Below the pieces are notes generated by a model. It was given only the letters and a program-made list of their open reading frames with translations, was not told the origin of the DNA and made no database searches. The translations under genes were made by a program, and so were the position numbers. DNA of 64,000 nt from Gemmatimonadota bacterium (GTDB lineage: Bacteria; Gemmatimonadota; Gemmatimonadetes; Gemmatimonadales; GWC2-71-9), in the NCBI GenBank assembly GCA_003221005.1, contig QHTZ01000078.1:9466-73465 (forward strand), read 5' to 3'. The number at the start of each line of letters is the position of its first letter. Position 1 is the stretch's first letter. Of the stretch, positions 2,859 through 61,106 are shown piece by piece.

Positions 2859-3060
2859 TTAACAGCAGCGCGCGACCTGGCCCTTTCGTTCGAAGCAGTC
2901 GGCTAGGTATTCGCGCTCGCTCAGCGGAGGACGCCCCGCCCGCCGACAGTGCTCGACGTAAGCCGCGTAATCGGGCGCGCCGATGATGCGCCGCAGCACG
3001 CGCGTGACGCGGGTGGGGAGGGGCTGGGCCCCTTCCCCCTTCCCTCTTCCCCCTTCCCGT

Positions 3061-5170: not shown

Positions 5171-5968
5171 TTGGACGTTGGCTGCGCGCGCGACCACGCC
5201 GGGGGGGAGACGGTTCAGGGCCGCGTCGCGATCGTCACCGGCGGCGCGACTGGCCTGGGGCGCGCCACCGGCCTCGAGTTCGCCCGGCAAGGCGTCGCGA
5301 TCGCCTTCAACTACGTCGAGCTCCCCGAGCGCGACGTCGGCGCGCAGGCGTTGCTCACCGAAACGGCCATCCGCGCGCAGGGCGTCCCCGTCTACTGCGC
5401 CCGCTGTGACGTCCGCAACCACGACGAAGTCGAGCGCTTCGTCACCGAGACCCGCGAGCGACTCGGCGGCGTGCACTACCTGGTGAACAACGCTGGGGTG
5501 ACGCACGATGGCGCCCTGTGGCGGCTGTCGGCGGACGCCTGGCAGGAGGTGCTCGACACTAATGTGACGGGCGCGTTCAACTGCATTCAGGTGGTGTCCC
5601 GCCACATGCGCGCTCAGCGTTATGGCAAAGTCGTGAACGTGGCGAGTCATCAAGCCTTCCGGCCCGGTTTCGGGATCTCGAACTACGCGACCAGCAAGGC
5701 GGCGCTGATCGGTCTCACCAAGGCCGCCGCCGTCGACCTGGGCTCCTCCAACGTCAACGTCAATGCGGTCGCACCGGGGTTCGTGAAGACCGAGCTGCTC
5801 GCGAAGCTGCCGCGCGAGGTATTGGAGCGCGCCGAGCACGAATCGGTGCTGGGACGCGTCGCCGAGCCCGAGGACATCGCGCGCGTCATCGTGTTCCTGT
5901 GCAGTGACGCGGCGCGGCACATCACGGGGCAAGTGATCGTGGTGGACGGCGGGCTGACGCTCGCTTGA
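5171..5968 (+). CDS. Short-chain dehydrogenase/reductase, FabG-like
   Basis: TGGATGLG, NNAG, YATSK, NAVAPG motifs. Start uncertain (TTG 5171 chosen; ORF track begins 5096). Confidence 0.9.
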   Translation: MDVGCARDHAGGETVQGRVAIVTGGATGLGRATGLEFARQGVAIAFNYVELPERDVGAQALLTETAIRAQGVPVYCARCDVRNHDEVERFVTETRERLGGVHYLVNNAGVTHDGALWRLSADAWQEVLDTNVTGAFNCIQVVSRHMRAQRYGKVVNVASHQAFRPGFGISNYATSKAALIGLTKAAAVDLGSSNVNVNAVAPGFVKTELLAKLPREVLERAEHESVLGRVAEPEDIARVIVFLCSDAARHITGQVIVVDGGLTLA

Positions 5969-11289: not shown

Positions 11290-12266
11290 CCGCCGTGCTC
11301 GCCGTGCTCGAGCAGCGCGACGGCGCCCTGCGCAAGGTGTCGCACGAGGTAGTCACGGGAGCGCGACGCCTCGCGGACGCGGGGAGTGGGACGGTGGAGG
11401 CGCTGGTCCTCGGCGGGGGCACGGTGAGCGGCGCGGACCAGCTCGGCCGCTTCGGGGCGGACAGGGTGACCACGGCCACGCATGCGGCCCTCGGGCGCTA
11501 CACCCCCGAGGGATACACGCGGGTCGTGGTGGAACGGGTGCGTGCGCGGCAGTACGACGCGGTCGTGTTCCCAGCGAGCGCGACCGGGAGAGACCTGGCG
11601 CCCCGGGTCGCCGCCCGGCTCGGCGTCCCCCTTGCGGCGGACGTCACGGACCTCGGGATCGAGGGGGGCGCGATTTGGGCCACGCGGCCGGTGTACGCCG
11701 GCAAGGCGCTGCTGAAGGTAAAGCTCCTCGCCCGGCCGGCACTGCTGTCGCTGCGGCCCAATGTGTTCACCCCGGTTGAGCGTCCCCGCGCGGCCGCGGC
11801 GGAGACCGCGAAAGTGGACGTGCCGGAGCGCGGCGGGCGGGTTGTGGTGCGCGAGATCAAGGCTGCGGCGGCTGGAGCACTCGACGTGGCCGAAGCGCCG
11901 ATCGTCGTGTCGGGGGGGCGGGGGCTCAAGGAGCCCGCGAACTTCAGGCTGCTGGAGGAGCTGGCGCGCGCGTTCGGCGGCAAGGCGGCGGTGGGGGCCT
12001 CGCGCGCCGTGGTGGACGCGGGCTGGCGCCCACACGCGGATCAGGTGGGCCAGACAGGGAAGACCGTGAGCCCCACCCTGTACGTCGCGGTCGGCATCTC
12101 GGGGGCGATCCAGCACCTCGCGGGGATGCGCACGTCCAAGGTCATCGTCGCGATCAATCGCGACAAGGACGCGCCCATCTTCAAGGTCGCGGACTACGGG
12201 ATCGTGGGAGACCTGTTCGAGATCGTGCCGAGGCTTACCGAGGAGATCAGGAAACTGCATGCCTAG
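11286..12266 (+). CDS. etfA: Electron transfer flavoprotein alpha subunit
   Basis: [37 protein letters not shown]. Confidence 0.96.
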
Positions 12267-12293
12267 GGACCGGGGACGAGGGACGAGGGAAGG
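12266..12293 (+). repeat. G-rich heptamer array filling the intergenic space
   Basis: GGGACCG GGGACGA GGGACGA GGGAAGG between the etfA stop and GTG 12294. Confidence 0.75.
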
Positions 12294-37102: not shown

Positions 37103-38197
37103 GTGGCCGCTTCCAACACACTCCAGGCGCAGGTCGAGCGCGCCCTCGCCAAGCTCCCGAACCCCCGCCTCGCCAAGGACGTCGTCTCGGCCGGGATGGT
37201 GAAGGACCTCGCCGTGGATGGCGGGGCGGTCACGTTCACGTTTCTCCTCGCCCGCGATGACCCCGGGACGCTGGTGCGCGAGGCGCGCAAGACGGTGAAG
37301 GCCGTGCCGGGCGTGACCGCCGTGACGATCAACGTGAAGGACTCGGGAGGAGGGACGGGGGAGGGGGGACGAGTCGCCGCGGCGACGGCCGCGGCCCGTG
37401 GCGGCGTGCCGCCCCCACCCACGCCCATCGAGCAACCCAATCTCGGTGCGGCCCTCGCGATCTCGTCCGGCAAGGGCGGGGTCGGGAAGTCCACCGTTTC
37501 CGCCAACCTCGCCGCCGCCCTGGCGCGCGACGGCCACCGCGTCGGACTGATGGACGCCGACATCTACGGCCCCAACATCCCCCGGATGATGGGGGTGGGG
37601 GGAGGCCGGAAGCCGGAAGTTCACGGCGGCAGGATCCAGCCGCTCGAGGGACACGGCGTCAAGCTGATGTCGCTCGGCTTCCTGGTCGAGCGCGACGCGC
37701 CCGCCATCTGGCGGGGTCCGATCATCATGAAGGTCATCCAGCAGTTCCTGCGGGAGGTGGCGTGGGGCGAGCTGGACTACTTCCTCATCGACCTCCCGCC
37801 CGGCACGGGAGACGCCCAGCTGTCCCTGGCGCAATCGATCACGCTCCGGGGTGCCATCATCGTCACGACGCCGCAGGAGATGGCGGTCGGCGACAGCCTG
37901 CGCGGCGCGAAGATGTTCGAGCGCGTGGGCGTGCCCGTGGTCGGCGTGGTCGAGAACATGAGTTACTACATCTGCCCGCATTGCGGCGAGCGCACCGAGA
38001 TCTTTCTCACGGGCGGTGGTGAGCGGCTTGCGCGCGAGCTCGACGTGCCGCTGCTCGGCCAGGTGCCCCTGCAGGCGCGCATGGCGGACTTCGCGGACGC
38101 CGGCAAGCCGATTGTGCTGGCCGAGCCGTCGTCTCCCGCCGGCGTGGCGCTCGCGGAGATCGCCGCGCGGTTGAGCCAGCGGCTCGCCGCGCGCTGA
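37103..38197 (+). CDS. mrp: Mrp/ApbC Fe-S cluster carrier ATPase
   Basis: SGKGGVGKST, DADIYGP, WRGP, DLPPGTGD, ENMS..CPHC. Confidence 0.95.
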   Translation: MAASNTLQAQVERALAKLPNPRLAKDVVSAGMVKDLAVDGGAVTFTFLLARDDPGTLVREARKTVKAVPGVTAVTINVKDSGGGTGEGGRVAAATAAARGGVPPPPTPIEQPNLGAALAISSGKGGVGKSTVSANLAAALARDGHRVGLMDADIYGPNIPRMMGVGGGRKPEVHGGRIQPLEGHGVKLMSLGFLVERDAPAIWRGPIIMKVIQQFLREVAWGELDYFLIDLPPGTGDAQLSLAQSITLRGAIIVTTPQEMAVGDSLRGAKMFERVGVPVVGVVENMSYYICPHCGERTEIFLTGGGERLARELDVPLLGQVPLQARMADFADAGKPIVLAEPSSPAGVALAEIAARLSQRLAAR

Positions 38198-58049: not shown

Positions 58050-59417
58050 ATGACGGGCACCCTGATGGTCGGTGTGTCGGGGGTCCGGGGAATCGTCGAT
58101 CGCGACCTGACGCCGGAGGTCGTCACCCGCTGGGCGGCGGCATTTGGGACTTGGGTGCGTGAGGCCGGCCGACCGTCCGTCATTGTCGGCCGCGATTCCC
58201 GCAAGTCGGGGCCCCGCTTCACCGCAGCCGTGATCGCGGGCCTGGGAGGGGCCGGCTGCCGGGTCATCGATGTCGGTCTCGCGCCCACCCCCACGATTCA
58301 GCTCGCCGTCCTGCACCACGGTGCGGGCGGCGGTATCGCGATCACGGCGAGCCACAACCCGATCGAGTGGAATGCGCTGAAGTTCATCGGGCCCGACGGC
58401 ATCTTTCTTGACGGGGCGAACAGTGCGCGGGTCTTGGACCTGGCCGCGCGAGAGGGAAGGGGGACGGGGGAAGGGGGAAGGGTAGAGAAGGATCCCGGCG
58501 CCATCGAGCGGCATCTCGCGGGCGTGCTCGCACTCCCGATCGTGCGCGTGGAGCGGATTCGCGCACGGAAATTCACAGTGGCGCTGGATGCCGTGCGCGG
58601 TGCCGGCGGACCCATCATGGGAACGCTGCTCGAGCGACTCGGCTGCAGCGTGACCGGGATCAACCTCGAGACGGACGGGGACTTCCCTCGCGCGCCGGAA
58701 CCTGTCCCCGAACACCTGGGCGACCTCGGCGCGCTGGTGCGGCGCTCTGGCGCGGACCTCGGCATCGCGGTGGACCCGGACGTCGACCGGTTGGCGATCG
58801 TGGACGAAGGCGGCACGCCAATAGGAGAGGATTACACTCTGGGTTTCGCGGTGCGGGCCGTCTTGGGGAAGGGGGACGGGGGAAGGGGGAAGGGTGCCAC
58901 CGTCGTTTGCAATCTTTCCACCAGCCTCGTCGTCGACGATGCGGCACGCGAGTATGGTGCGGACGTCGTGCGGACGCCCGTCGGCGAAGCCCACGTGGCG
59001 CGCAAGATGGAGGAGCTCGGCGCGCCGATCGGCGGCGAGGGGAATGGGGGGGTTATCTATCCCGCCCTGCACGCCGGTCGCGACGCCCCGGTCGCCGCTG
59101 CCCTGGTGCTCGAGCTGCTCGCAGGGAGCGGACGTCGGGTGAGCGAGCAGGTGGCGGCAGCGCCCCGCTATACGATCGTCAAAGCGAAGGTGCCCCGGGG
59201 TGCGGAACTCGGGCCGGTGTACGCCGCGTTGAAGCAGCGGTTCCCCGATGCGCGGGCGGATGAGCAGGACGGTCTGCGGCTCGGTTGGCGGGATCGTTGG
59301 TTGCACGTCCGACCGTCCAACACCGAGCCGATCATCCGGCTGATCGCGGAGGCCCCCGCGCCCGAGCTCGCGCGGCAACTCGTAGAGGAGGGACGTCGCC
59401 TATGTGCGGTATCGTAG
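58050..59417 (+). CDS. glmM: Phosphoglucosamine mutase (phosphohexomutase family)
   Basis: VSGVRG, GRDSR, TASHNP, DPDVDR, GGEGNGG, RPSNTEP; upstream of glmS. Confidence 0.88.
   Translation: MTGTLMVGVSGVRGIVDRDLTPEVVTRWAAAFGTWVREAGRPSVIVGRDSRKSGPRFTAAVIAGLGGAGCRVIDVGLAPTPTIQLAVLHHGAGGGIAITASHNPIEWNALKFIGPDGIFLDGANSARVLDLAAREGRGTGEGGRVEKDPGAIERHLAGVLALPIVRVERIRARKFTVALDAVRGAGGPIMGTLLERLGCSVTGINLETDGDFPRAPEPVPEHLGDLGALVRRSGADLGIAVDPDVDRLAIVDEGGTPIGEDYTLGFAVRAVLGKGDGGRGKGATVVCNLSTSLVVDDAAREYGADVVRTPVGEAHVARKMEELGAPIGGEGNGGVIYPALHAGRDAPVAAALVLELLAGSGRRVSEQVAAAPRYTIVKAKVPRGAELGPVYAALKQRFPDARADEQDGLRLGWRDRWLHVRPSNTEPIIRLIAEAPAPELARQLVEEGRRLCAVS
58454..58483 (+). repeat. G-rich heptamer array in glmM, copy 1
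   Basis: gggaagggggacgggggaagggggaagggt. Confidence 0.88.
58866..58895 (+). repeat. G-rich heptamer array in glmM, copy 2 (identical 30-mer)
   Basis: gggaagggggacgggggaagggggaagggt. Confidence 0.88.
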
Positions 59418-61106
59418 GGTACACGGGGGCCCGGCAGGCGGGGCCGTTGCTGCTCGAGGGGCTGAAGCGCCTCGAGTACCGCGGCTACGACTCCGCCGGG
59501 CTCGCGCTCGTGGCGGAGGGTCGCATCGAGGTCCACAAGGCGCCGGGCAAGATCGAGAAGCTCGAGAAGGAGCTCGGTGCCACGCTCCCCCGCGGCCAGA
59601 CCGGTATCGCCCACACGCGCTGGGCGACGCACGGTGTGCCCAACACCGTCAATGCCCACCCGCACACCGACTGCGGCGGCATGCTGGCGCTCGCGCACAA
59701 CGGCATCATCGAGAACGCGGGGGTGCTGCGGCCGACCCTCGTGAAGCGGGGCCACACCTTCCGCTCGGAGACTGACACCGAGGTGCTCACCCATCTGATC
59801 GAGGAGCTGCACGCGAAGGGGCGCGCGCTGGTGGAGGCGGTGGCGGGCGCGCTCGCCCAGGTGGAAGGGACCTACGGGATCGCGGTGATCTCGACGCGCG
59901 AGCCGGACACCATCGTGGCGGCGCGCCGCGGCTCGCCGCTGCTCGTCGCCATCGGCAATCACGAGAACTTCGTCGCCTCCGACGCCTCGGCGGTGCTGGC
60001 GCACACCCGCTCGGTGGTCTACCTCGACGACGGCGAGATCGCCGTGGTGCGGCCCAACGAGTATCACATCCTCGACCTCGACGCCGTGGAGAAGGAAAAG
60101 GCCGTGACCCATGTGGACTGGGATGTGGCGACGATCGAGCGGGGCGGGTATGCCCACTTCATGCTGAAGGAGATCATGGAGCAGCCCGAGAGCGTACGGA
60201 ACACGCTGCGCGGCCGCCTCCTCGAGGAGGAGGGCACCGCCAAGCTCGGCGGCCTCAATCTCTCAGACGAAGACCTGCTCCAGGTCAACCGTATCGTGAT
60301 TACGGCCTGCGGCACATCGTGGCACGCGGGGCTCATCGGCGAATACATGATGGAGGAGCTGGCGCGAATTCCGACTGAGGTTGAGTACGCGTCGGAGTTT
60401 CGGTATCGCAATCCCATCGTGGACGACCGCACCCTCGTCGTCGGCATCTCGCAGTCGGGGGAGACGGCCGACACGCTGGCGGCGCTGCGTGAGGCAAAGC
60501 GCCGCGGCGCGCGCACGCTGGGTCTCGTGAACGTGGTGGGGAGCACGATCGCACGCGAGGTGGAGGGGGGCATCTGTGCGCGCCCTCGCGCGGCTCCCCG
60601 ACCTGGTGCGCCAGGTGCTCGAGAAGGCGCCTTCGGAGGTGGAGGCCATCGCCGAGCGGCTGCTGCGCGCGGGCAACGTGCTGTACCTGGGGCGTGGCTA
60701 CAACTTTCCCGTCGCGCTCGAAGGCGCCTTGAAGCTCAAGGAGATCTCCTACATCCACGCGGAGGGGTACGCCGCGGCCGAGATGAAGCACGGGCCGATC
60801 GCGCTGATCGACGACCTCATGCCCGTCGTGTTCGTGGCTCCCAAGGATGCGGTGTACCAGAAGATCGTGAGCAACGTCGAGGAGGTGAAGGCGCGGGGCG
60901 GCCGGGTGATCGCGGTCGTCACCGAGGGCGACACCGGTCTCGCGAAGCTCGCCGATCACCGGCTCGAGGTGCCCGAAACCCTCGACCTGCTGACGCCGAT
61001 CCTGACGGTGCTGCCGTTGCAGCTGCTCGCGTACTACATCGCGGTGCGCCGCGGCTGCAACGTGGATCAGCCGAGGAATCTGGCGAAGAGCGTGACGGTG
61101 GAATGA
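59402..61106 (+). pseudogene. glmS: Glutamine-fructose-6-phosphate transaminase with internal deletion plus frameshift (possibly assembly artefact)
   Basis: MCGIVG, LEYRGYDSAG, HTRWATHG, SQSGETADT; frame breaks at 60575/60576; C-part EGALKLKE...[11 protein letters not shown]; the GPEIGVASTKAF segment is absent. Confidence 0.9.

Follow-up and report, generated by a model that had tools for sequence, protein, structure and literature searches.

Two identical G-rich heptamer arrays read in different frames of glmM belong to a dispersed repeat family in a Gemmatimonadota bacterium

Results

The stretch of DNA analysed here, called the window, is 64,000 nucleotides long and lies on contig C102 in the genome of a soil bacterium of the Gemmatimonadales (Gemmatimonadota), where contig coordinates exceed window coordinates by 9465. 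The gene of interest, glmM, is located at 58050–59417 on the + strand and encodes an archaeal-type phosphoglucosamine mutase of 455 residues plus stop. The protein scores 477.3 bits with the TIGR03990 Arch_GlmM profile (curated cut-off 439), and its active-site motif TASHNP (T99-A-S-H-N-P104) is invariant among 46 sequences. Its closest PDB relative is 1WQA, a solved archaeal homologue (E 7.9e-86), and glmM orthologues are present in 40 of 41 related genomes. The neighbouring glmS gene starts at approximately 59401. A suspicious internal deletion was observed in glmS in this assembly.

The single open frame 58050–59417 contains two exact copies of the 30-mer GGGAAGGGGGACGGGGGAAGGGGGAAGGGT, both on the + strand, at 58454–58483 (copy 1, site 1) and 58866–58895 (copy 2, site 2). 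They differ by 0 mismatches, and 100 dinucleotide shuffles gave no match to the 30-mer even with 3 mismatches allowed. The repeat consists of about four heptamer units followed by GGGT on the sense strand, and Tandem Repeats Finder (TRF) reports period 7 with 4.1–4.3 copies at both sites. Identity ends at the edges of the 30-mer, the preceding base being A for copy 1 and G for copy 2. The offset of 412 nt (3x137+1) places the copies in two reading frames: copy 1 begins at codon position 3 and copy 2 is codon-aligned. The corresponding peptides are E135-GRGTGEGGR-V145 and G273-KGDGGRGK-G282. An earlier note on this DNA had reported the exact pair, its spacing and the open frame, all of which we confirm. 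It had also stressed that the two frames yield different peptides. The frames do differ, but the peptides are not unrelated: a 7-nt unit gives a 7-residue period in whatever frame, with shifted phase, so the two loop peptides are permuted relatives, both drawing on Gly, Arg, Lys, Glu, Asp and Thr. The arrays use the rare codons AGG, GGA, GAA and GTA. All three array Arg codons are AGG, which represents 2.9% of Arg codons genome-wide, and none of the 11 Gly codons is GGC, which represents 50.7% of Gly codons. Judged from the differing frames and the rare codons, the identity of the 30-mers is a DNA-level phenomenon for which selection on the protein would not suffice, in agreement with the earlier note.

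In an AlphaFold2 model of GlmM (mean pLDDT 92.6), the residues of copy 1 (E135–V145) are found in a coil (134–144) at the end of domain 1, as a block of pLDDT 70. Those of copy 2 (G273–G282) occupy a coil (274–283) between helix 263–273 and strand 284–288 in domain 3, as a block of pLDDT 67. Both arrays are thus predicted to encode coil loops, and these are the lowest-pLDDT blocks in the model, which fits the tolerant loops that had been suggested for them.

The region is reproduced with 0–1 differences and no indels in Logan contigs from three soil metagenome runs of three other studies (X6, X8 and X12); these are assembled contigs and not raw reads. Copy 1 is spanned by X12 record 2 (58343–58765) and is present with its left flank in X6 record 13. 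X8 record 23 (58455–58894) extends from copy 1 through to copy 2, and X6 record 17 and X8 record 25 contain copy 2 and its right flank. Among the records listed, none alone covers copy 2 together with 31 nt of each flank. Both copies and the 382 nt between them are reproduced without indels by the contigs from these runs taken together. These contigs contain no unit-number variants of the glmM arrays, which is weak evidence because contigs drop rare variants. Some joints in metagenome contigs, of the types 'opposite strands' and 'skips', were considered as rearrangements and rejected, as their sides are short and fit arrays of other organisms. The only contig from the RNA run X19 (58556–58803, 12 differences) stops short of both arrays and is therefore uninformative on their expression.

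The 30-mer is part of a dispersed family, in support of the interpretation in the earlier note. At 0, 1, 2, 3, 4 and 5 mismatches, 2, 5, 10, 20, 41 and 65 copies, respectively, are found in the genome of 2.79 Mb, and about 80 G-rich arrays of the form (GGGGGAM)x3–5 + GGGT are distributed over many contigs. A third 30-mer copy in the window, with 3 mismatches, lies at 3029–3058 on the − strand; the family member concerned (3033–3053, −; C102:12498–12518) is located just past the stop codon of an upstream gene on that strand. Two further members in the window are on the + strand: 12271–12291, with three units plus GGGT (C102:21736–21756; TRF row 12265–12290), and 37350–37370, with three units in the sense orientation within a predicted gene (C102:46815–46835; TRF row 37352–37371). 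Genome-wide, TRF lists 174 period-7 rows with a score of at least 40 and 36 period-6 rows at the same score. Four units is the mode (about 4 copies in 112 of the 174 period-7 arrays). Among 141 inner units, GGGGGAC (56), GAGGGAC (30) and GGGGGAA (19) were counted, and the unit pattern ACAA occurs in 6 of 47 four-unit arrays. Eleven convergent pairs account for 22 of the 80 arrays; the glmM pair itself is direct and not inverted. Several further unit families, of 7–10 nt, coexist in the same genome.

Based on home-made gene calls (2186 genes, 81% coding), 52 of the 80 arrays are within predicted genes and 26 are intergenic; a stricter flank-frame test places 37 of the 80 within genes. Solo in-gene arrays are in the sense orientation in 26 cases and antisense in 2. 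Of 20 host genes tested, 17 match NCBIfam families (E<=1e-10), and eight host genes exceed curated NCBIfam cut-offs: alaS, valS, mutS2, icd, mnmE, nadE, and those for oxoglutarate dehydrogenase and a ComEC N-terminal domain. The hosts are unrelated, and no position rule shared among them was seen.

Comparison with 110 orthologues gave a different picture for each site. At site 1 the loop is 20–27 residues long in 110/110 orthologues (22 residues in 80), and the array stands where the orthologues and 1WQA have a conserved RAxW..G motif. At site 2, 64 of 110 orthologues are without insert and have a 12-residue ancestral window, and copy 2 is 6 residues longer. The expectation that both copies would be lineage-specific insertions is therefore correct for site 2 and fails for site 1, where equivalent residues are present with no indel, an outcome that the earlier note had given as refuting. 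Array-like sequence at site 1 marks a clade of 11 sequences; L002–L007, L031–L033 and L078 all fall within one clade in a FastTree phylogeny. Here, heptamer arrays are present in L002, L003, L007, L032 and L078 and decamer arrays in L031 and L033, the site is degenerate in L005, and arrays are absent in L004 and L006. At site 2, G-rich heptamer arrays are present in L078, L031 and L005, their register matching that of the window copy, and L002, L033 and L004 have whole octamer hairpins. These states are patchy on the tree, with G-heptamer arrays and octamer hairpins alternating among close relatives, so that repeated replacement or recombination between species is needed. Site 2 is, from these alignments, a lineage-specific insertion hotspot. 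As both sites are array-bearing, with matching register, in sister species, both copies are old, contrary to the fresh insertions that had been proposed.

One congener, G004, whose assembly is 100% complete, contains 0 matches to the family. It lacks period-7/8 arrays in the 216 kb sampled and has no array at five orthologous loops (glmM site 1, glmM site 2, icd, alaS and valS). The remaining congeners have arrays at most of these loops. Orthologous arrays change flavour in step with the rest of the genome: in G005, the glmM and icd arrays are of its own genome-wide GGGGGAA/GCGGGAA flavour, and six exact 21-mers are found in G005.

How unusual is the identity of the two copies? Among 3141 distant array pairs, a single one shows identity over 30 nt, and shuffling of units gives 1.35 identical pairs per 1081, i.e. 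a chance identity of about 0.03–0.1% per pair. Array pairs less than 3 kb apart (n=19) show on average 4.3 mismatches versus 6.0 (Mann-Whitney p=2e-4; the pairs are not independent). Compared with the unit-shuffle null, 2 identical pairs were observed versus 1.35 (P=0.36), and 24 pairs with at most 1 mismatch versus 14.6 (P=0.056). The linkage of units over whole arrays is thus weakly above the null, and the identity alone is moderately improbable, at about 0.006–0.024 when the 19 neighbouring pairs are allowed for. Copying and pasting of whole arrays as the sole source of similarity was rejected given this weak excess at up to 1 mismatch.

Discussion

We propose, with a probability of about 60%, that the glmM 30-mers are resident family members, (GGGGGAM)x4 + GGGT, which are in frame, sense-oriented and old, and which are kept alike by copying at the DNA level. 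The identity of the copies in this genome is best explained by recent homogenisation, and the arrays would be neither adaptations of GlmM nor fresh transposon hits. Both glmM sites were probably array-bearing already in the common ancestor of the 11-species clade. At site 1, the stretch overwritten by the array would have been rich in G beforehand and would have encoded RAGWEGVG, the length staying the same; the site 2 loop would be a family-wide hotspot for insertion and swapping of short tandem arrays. The similarity patterns suggest conversion or template switching among arrays. Arrays may be renewed genome-wide at the DNA level in this manner, by slippage together with template switching or gene conversion between arrays, and the same process could recently have made the two neighbouring glmM copies identical. 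One unit more or less would put the essential glmM gene out of frame, and purifying selection presumably removes all arrays but those that are in frame, on the sense strand and located in tolerant loops. Against this reading stand the patchy states of site 2 and the weak linkage of units over whole arrays.

A rival reading, following the earlier note, is that a small mobile element (MITE-, REP- or IVS-like) recently entered glmM twice, each time independently and in a tolerant loop, and several observations point in this direction: the insertion at site 2 relative to 64 orthologues, the dispersed family with five copies at up to 1 mismatch, the recurrent ACAA unit pattern, the complete octamer hairpins at site 2 in three relatives, and the presence in the genome of two Y1 transposase genes and six PF05635 genes, three of them framed by inverted arrays. 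However, the length of site 1 is unchanged across 110 orthologues and sister species hold in-register arrays at both sites. The 30-mer has no self-complementarity (0 kcal/mol when G-quadruplexes are disallowed), and no target duplication or terminal repeats were seen, nor any complementary array near the glmM copies. Within 600 nt of the two Y1_Tnp genes there is no period-7/8 array, and mobilisation by a RAYT was rejected on the lack of heptamer-type flanking arrays; the only TRF row near the Y1 genes is one of 9 nt, about 200 nt upstream of that on C66. Retro-copying was likewise rejected, as a search for PF00078 found no reverse transcriptase in the genome, which is 93.9% complete. We therefore consider insertion of such an element improbable. 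Selection on the protein for flexible, charged, Gly-rich loops, with DNA identity as a by-product, is more improbable still. It would agree with the coil predicted for both loops, and since every frame of a heptamer array repeats after 7 residues, both loops receive similar Gly/Arg/Lys/Glu-rich peptides, but identity of 30/30 nt across two frames is not obtainable from differing peptides, the rare codons are used while the preferred GGC never is, and 26 of the 80 arrays of the same DNA family are intergenic. Least probable is that the copies are identical by chance, as members of a low-complexity family, or through an error of assembly. The few unit types and at least one suspicious deletion in the assembly would be in its favour; against it are the rarity of identical pairs (1/3141, or 1.35/1081), the metagenome contigs that reproduce both copies and the sequence between them, and a glmM frame that stays open and aligns with orthologues across both sites.

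Alternatively, the arrays may be G-quadruplex elements selected in mRNA or non-template DNA, for example to pause ribosomes or polymerase near GlmM domain borders, the copies being alike because of a shared structural optimum. This possibility, which we regard as unlikely although somewhat less so than insertion of a mobile element, would account for some features of the family. The 30-mer has five G-tracts with 2-nt loops, and when G-quadruplex energies are included, RNAfold predicts such a fold for each copy, with −11.7 kcal/mol for the bare 30-mer, in line with the potential noted earlier. The G-tracts are intact here while the flanks are about 25% different from relatives. The four-unit mode and the 26:2 sense bias could have selection for a G-quadruplex as an alternative cause, and oligonucleotides of related Xanthomonas and Nostoc repeats form quadruplexes in vitro (Rehm et al. 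2015, PMC4692102). On the other hand, congener G004 is without arrays at the five orthologous loops, arrays decay in L031 and L005, and non-G octamer hairpins replace them in L002, L033 and L004. The array hosts are unrelated genes without a visible position rule, and Rehm et al. (PMC4692102) did not find a regulatory role.

What could renew the arrays? One speculative answer, again unlikely in our opinion, is that family-f1 Gemmatimonadales arrays, including the glmM pair, owe both their writing and their renewal across the genome to an unrecognised system connected with PF05635, the domain of small '23S rRNA intervening-sequence protein' genes. Array pairs would then be the stems of stem-loops carrying these genes, and ORF-less hairpins and solo arrays, including those within essential genes, would be non-autonomous derivatives. 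The three PF05635 genes framed by inverted arrays involve three different unit families, and the one at C118:61267–61727 is framed by arrays of the same G-rich family as glmM. The array-free G004 has no PF05635 gene. Within family f1, five genomes without PF05635 contain 2 arrays in 545 kb and five genomes bearing it contain 37 arrays in 459 kb, the samples being small and the genomes related to one another. In other families of the order, G031, G027 and G039 bear PF05635 and show 0 arrays in 54–60 kb each, so the gene is at most necessary and not sufficient. An order-wide association was rejected, as G-rich matches and PF05635 presence do not separate over 41 genomes. Matches to the reversed pattern were left aside as a control for these counts, since a heptamer array read backwards is in part the array itself.

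Comparison with known repeats may help to situate this family. Rickettsia palindromic elements are palindromic units of about 100–150 bp, true insertions that persist as in-frame selfish repeats in protein genes. Like them, the arrays survive in housekeeping genes through in-frame translation at parts of the protein surface where changes are tolerated. The glmM element, in contrast, has 30 nt, is not palindromic, shows no indel at one site and appears inherited and homogenised. As it shows neither a palindrome nor terminal inverted repeats nor a target duplication, the analogy drawn in the earlier note is limited to that of a repeat translated in frame. REP/BIME sequences are imperfect palindromes, and the gene of the RAYT (Y1) transposase is flanked by the repeat. 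They share with our arrays the short dispersed repeats, often as inverted pairs near gene ends, and two Y1_Tnp genes are present in this genome, but the present element is no imperfect palindrome, heptamer-type arrays do not flank the Y1 genes, and the repeats are tandem heptamers that are largely intragenic. Cyanobacterial STRR resemble the present case in that several tandem heptanucleotide families are dispersed in one genome; the units and the phylum are different. To our knowledge, systematic in-frame, sense-strand residence has not been reported for STRR. In Calothrix PCC7601, three tandemly repetitive heptanucleotides are described (PMC4692102).

Among known repeats, this family is closest to the G-rich heptamers described in Xanthomonas, as (GGGAATC)n, and in Nostoc, as (GGGGA(C/T)T)n (Rehm et al. 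2015, PLoS One, PMC4692102). Common features are a 7-nt unit with a G-tract, dispersed copies in the hundreds, a four-unit mode, many convergent pairs, positions kept between related species with varying sequence and length, and the potential to form G-quadruplexes. The Gemmatimonadota unit GGGGGAM differs by its G5 tracts with 2-nt loops and its usual closure by GGGT, and the host by its phylum and by the several other 7–10 nt unit families in the genome. The intragenic share, 37–52 of 80 here, compares with 7–11% in Xanthomonas and 32% in Nostoc, and the coding strand, favoured here (26:2), is given as under-represented by Rehm et al. (PMC4692102). The largely intragenic, sense-strand habit would thus be new relative to those heptamers, and our literature search found no description of such repeats in Gemmatimonadota. 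If our reading is correct, a G-quadruplex-prone simple repeat family lives in this phylum largely within essential genes and on the sense strand. Its change of flavour from genome to genome would make it a natural system to study the concerted evolution of dispersed micro-repeats, the absorption by proteins of DNA-driven loops, and the relevance of G-quadruplexes in coding mRNA. The array-free congener G004 provides a ready-made control.

Two other classes of in-gene repeats deserve mention. Phase-variable contingency repeats are also short tandem repeats within genes, with a unit that is not a multiple of 3. The arrays described here differ in having essential housekeeping hosts and in showing no length variant in contigs of three runs; a one-unit slip would inactivate glmM, whereas in contingency loci it switches a surface antigen. 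The repeats within Borg genes are reported to have unit lengths divisible by 3 and to form locally, unlike the 7-nt unit and the arrays from dispersed families common to many loci found here. Borg tandem repeats create disordered protein regions (PMC9879509), and they share with the present arrays a fast evolution and the addition of such regions to proteins.

The two arrays of glmM

The 30-mer GGGAAGGGGGACGGGGGAAGGGGGAAGGGT is found on the + strand, with 0 mismatches, at both 58454-58483 (copy 1) and 58866-58895 (copy 2), within the single open frame of glmM (58050-59417, + strand). The product of this gene exceeds the curated TIGR03990 threshold for an archaeal-type phosphoglucosamine mutase, and the next gene is glmS. 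None of 100 dinucleotide-shuffled sequences matched the 30-mer, even allowing 3 mismatches. With an offset of 412 nt the copies are read in different frames, as E135-GRGTGEGGR-V145 and G273-KGDGGRGK-G282. That an identical 30-mer occurs twice in glmM in different frames, as claimed in an earlier note, is thus real. Because the unit is 7 nt long, any frame gives the same 7-residue period in a shifted phase, and the two loop peptides are related to each other by permutation. The glmM region is matched by assembled Logan contigs, as distinct from raw reads, of three soil metagenome runs from three other studies, with 0-1 differences and 0 indels. Copy 1 is bridged by one contig (run X12, 58343-58765), and copy 2 is covered from either side by overlapping pieces from run X8 (58455-58894 and 58867-59100), no single piece spanning it among the Logan matches listed. 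No array length variants in glmM were present in the contigs of the three runs; a one-unit slip would frameshift an essential gene.

In an AlphaFold2 model of GlmM (46 sequences; mean pLDDT 92.6, pTM 0.92), copy 1 lies in coil 134-144 and copy 2 in coil 274-283. The corresponding 10-residue blocks have pLDDT values of 70 and 67, the lowest of the model except for the N-terminus. The codons of these loops are dictated by the repeat: the three Arg codons are all AGG (2.9% of Arg codons genome-wide), the 11 Gly codons are GGA or GGG, with GGT once and never GGC (50.7% genome-wide), and GAA and GTA are also used. When G-quadruplex energies are included, RNAfold places a predicted quadruplex on each copy, which is consistent with the potential proposed earlier for this element.

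A genome-wide family of heptamer arrays

In the 2.79-Mb genome of origin (69% G+C, 141 contigs), the 30-mer has 2, 5, 10, 20, 41 and 65 copies at 0, 1, 2, 3, 4 and 5 mismatches, respectively. Relatives identified through the GlmM protein put this genome in Gemmatimonadales. Period-7 arrays are strikingly over-represented in it (174 rows at a Tandem Repeats Finder score of at least 40); they split into several unit families and have about four copies in 112 cases. A direct scan (GGGGGAM, 1 mismatch allowed, at least 3 units) yielded 80 G-rich arrays, mostly ending in GGGT, 22 of which form 11 convergent pairs that would form hairpins. Five family members are in the window, where coordinates are contig coordinates minus an offset of 9465. 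Other heptamer families are represented in the window by three inverted pairs, at 10426-10458/10499-10528 (GAATGCG/TTCCGCG), 45660-45690/45716-45746 (GCGAGAT/CGCATCC) and 55570-55599/55655-55694 (CGAGATG/TCCCGCA). Their arm differences resemble one-strand G-U wobble pairs, hinting at RNA-level hairpins.

According to a crude, self-trained codon-usage gene caller (2186 genes, 81% coding), 52 of the 80 arrays are intragenic, 2 lie across gene edges and 26 are intergenic. A stricter test, in which both 150-nt flanks are best coded in one frame and the span is without a stop, leaves 37 of the 80 in genes. Among 20 host genes tested, 17 have NCBIfam matches at E<=1e-10 and three have none; eight exceed curated cut-offs (alaS, valS, mutS2, icd, mnmE, nadE, oxoglutarate dehydrogenase and the ComEC N-terminal domain). 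The two arrays of glmM thus typify a large population of in-gene arrays. Solo in-gene arrays have their G-rich strand in the sense orientation 26 times and in the antisense orientation twice, and antisense in-gene arrays are mostly the second arm of an in-gene hairpin. Avoidance of stop codons is ruled out as the cause of this bias, since T is missing from the G strand of the unit and A from its C strand, so that neither strand can hold a stop. A second direct pair of G-rich arrays (G000:C2:5232-5259 and 5617-5644, 385 nt apart, 4 mismatches) lies in sense orientation within a ComEC/Rec2-like gene of the same genome (G000). In an oxoglutarate dehydrogenase E1/E2-type gene of G000 (C120:37157-40777), some 800 nt separate two convergent G-array hairpins, both in frame.

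Site 2 insertion, and probable overwrite and homogenisation

We compared 110 GlmM orthologues, 30 from related genomes and 80 from MAGs; genome G020 is counted in the tallies alone and supports no claim. The site 1 window (LDLAARE...EKD) has 20-27 residues in all of them (22 in 80, 23 in 11, 21 in 11, 20 in 5, 25 in 2 and 27 in 1). Most orthologues, and the solved Pyrococcus homologue 1WQA, have the motif RAxW(D/E)x(I/V/L)G there. One 11-sequence clade (FastTree topology, loops masked) has G-rich array-like DNA in its place, and the flavour of this DNA depends on the species: GGGGGAC in L007, alternating GGGGGAA/GCGGGAA in L003, GAGGGAA in L078 and decamers in L031 and L033. The array is decayed in L005 and absent in L004 and L006. 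Judging from this alignment, site 1 is not an indel. The ancestral DNA was G-tract-rich already, e.g. GGGGTGGGAAGGGGTGGGT in L009, and these tracts may have offered the microhomology that enabled an array to overwrite the motif. At site 2, an ancestral 12-residue window is present in 64 of the 110 orthologues and the others have 1-22 additional residues, so that, on the same alignment, site 2 is a true lineage-specific insertion. The expectation that both sites would be clean lineage-specific insertions hence holds for site 2 and fails for site 1. The inserts at site 2 are often short tandem arrays of various families: G-heptamers in a single register (L001, L078, L031, L005), complete octamer hairpins (L002, L033, L004) or other arrays (L003, L009, L012), which points to a long-lived hotspot where arrays are swapped. 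The octamer hairpin of L002 (~2300-2400) and L033, species of different subclades, is translated in frame as (GGCGGTCA)x4 - spacer - (GACCGCCC)x4, and its family recurs in valS of genome G001. The valS match of G001 (C35:266718-269479) is split into three, and one of the parts has an internal TGA; this could mean a broken gene or an assembly problem.

Why the two copies are identical can be considered in this light. The earlier note proposed that a DNA-level element was being copied into tolerant loops of GlmM. A DNA-level repeat in tolerant loops is retained, but the idea that a palindrome-like mobile element freshly inserted twice is rejected, as site 1 is not an indel and sister species have arrays at both sites. 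Coincidence among arrays of such similar units is another, improbable explanation. Only 1 of 3141 non-neighbour pairs is identical over 30 nt (3'-end anchored), and when units are shuffled among the 47 arrays of four units, 1.35 of 1081 pairs come out identical. Chance identity of the glmM pair is thus about 0.0003-0.001, and rises to roughly 0.006-0.024 once the 19 neighbouring pairs are taken into account. These 19 pairs, less than 3 kb apart and including the identical glmM pair, average 4.3 mismatches versus 6.0 for distant pairs (Mann-Whitney p=2e-4), although they are not independent, six of them sharing one cluster. The simplest account is that copy 1 was recently homogenised with copy 2, or that a third copy homogenised them both; this genome holds three further copies within 1 mismatch of the 30-mer. 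Among known processes, short-tract gene conversion or template switching at a stalled fork would be able to do this, and either is a candidate here.

In the congener G004 (100% complete; loci L006, L141, L146, L148 and L152-L162), the family pattern is without a match, the 216 kb sampled are free of period-7/8 arrays (9.2-9.8 per 100 kb in G000 and 2.8 in G003), and there is no PF05635 ('23S rRNA intervening-sequence protein') gene that we could find. It is without an array at five orthologous loops (glmM sites 1 and 2, icd, alaS and valS), most of which are array-bearing in other congeners. Its alaS loop, which is unchanged in length and uses ordinary codons, resembles glmM site 1 of outgroups in this. 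Genome G005 has a GCGGGAA flavour of its own, seen in its glmM and icd arrays and, as exact matches, at six sites across the genome. Arrays at fixed positions thus track whole-genome state, as would be expected of a DNA process that acts on the entire genome rather than of selection at one locus after another.

Relation to known systems

Among described repeats, those closest to the glmM family are the G-rich heptamers of Xanthomonas and Nostoc, which, according to PMC4692102, share with it the heptamer unit, the four-unit mode and convergent pairs. They form G4 in vitro, whereas G4 is predicted for the glmM copies. Their intragenic share is given there as 7-11% in Xanthomonas and 32% in Nostoc, with the coding strand under-represented, while the glmM family occurs largely within genes and in sense orientation. 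Membership in REP/RAYT, in Rickettsia palindromic elements or in contingency loci was rejected, since a defining feature of each is lacking here. No description of such repeats in Gemmatimonadota was found in the literature searched, whose coverage was limited. Specific additions of this work are the strong sense-strand bias of in-gene arrays, the apparent overwriting, without change in length, of a conserved site 1 motif, sequence evidence suggestive of local homogenisation, and the array-free congener G004.

Three of the six PF05635 genes of G000 are in loops of inverted array pairs (G000:C118:61267-61727, C135:470-995 and C66:3751-4178) of three different unit families, one being the G-rich family of glmM, and a fourth has an array on its single assembled side. 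Within f1, the family of this genome, five genomes with 6-13 PF05635 genes have 37 period-7/8 arrays in 459 kb, and five without a PF05635 match have 2 in 545 kb sampled. Elsewhere in the order, G031, G027 and G039 have PF05635 and 0 arrays in 54-60 kb each, and G028, without PF05635, yet has 3 GC-only arrays. A link between PF05635 genes and arrays, in these small and related samples at most 'necessary, not sufficient', is kept as a lead that we judge improbable.

The adjacent glmS gene (about 59401-61106) is broken at 60568-60580, with about 44 codons missing, and is either a real pseudogene or the site of an assembly deletion. The L005 and L009 orthologues align to glmS 59324/59402-60574 in one frame and from 60576 onward in another.
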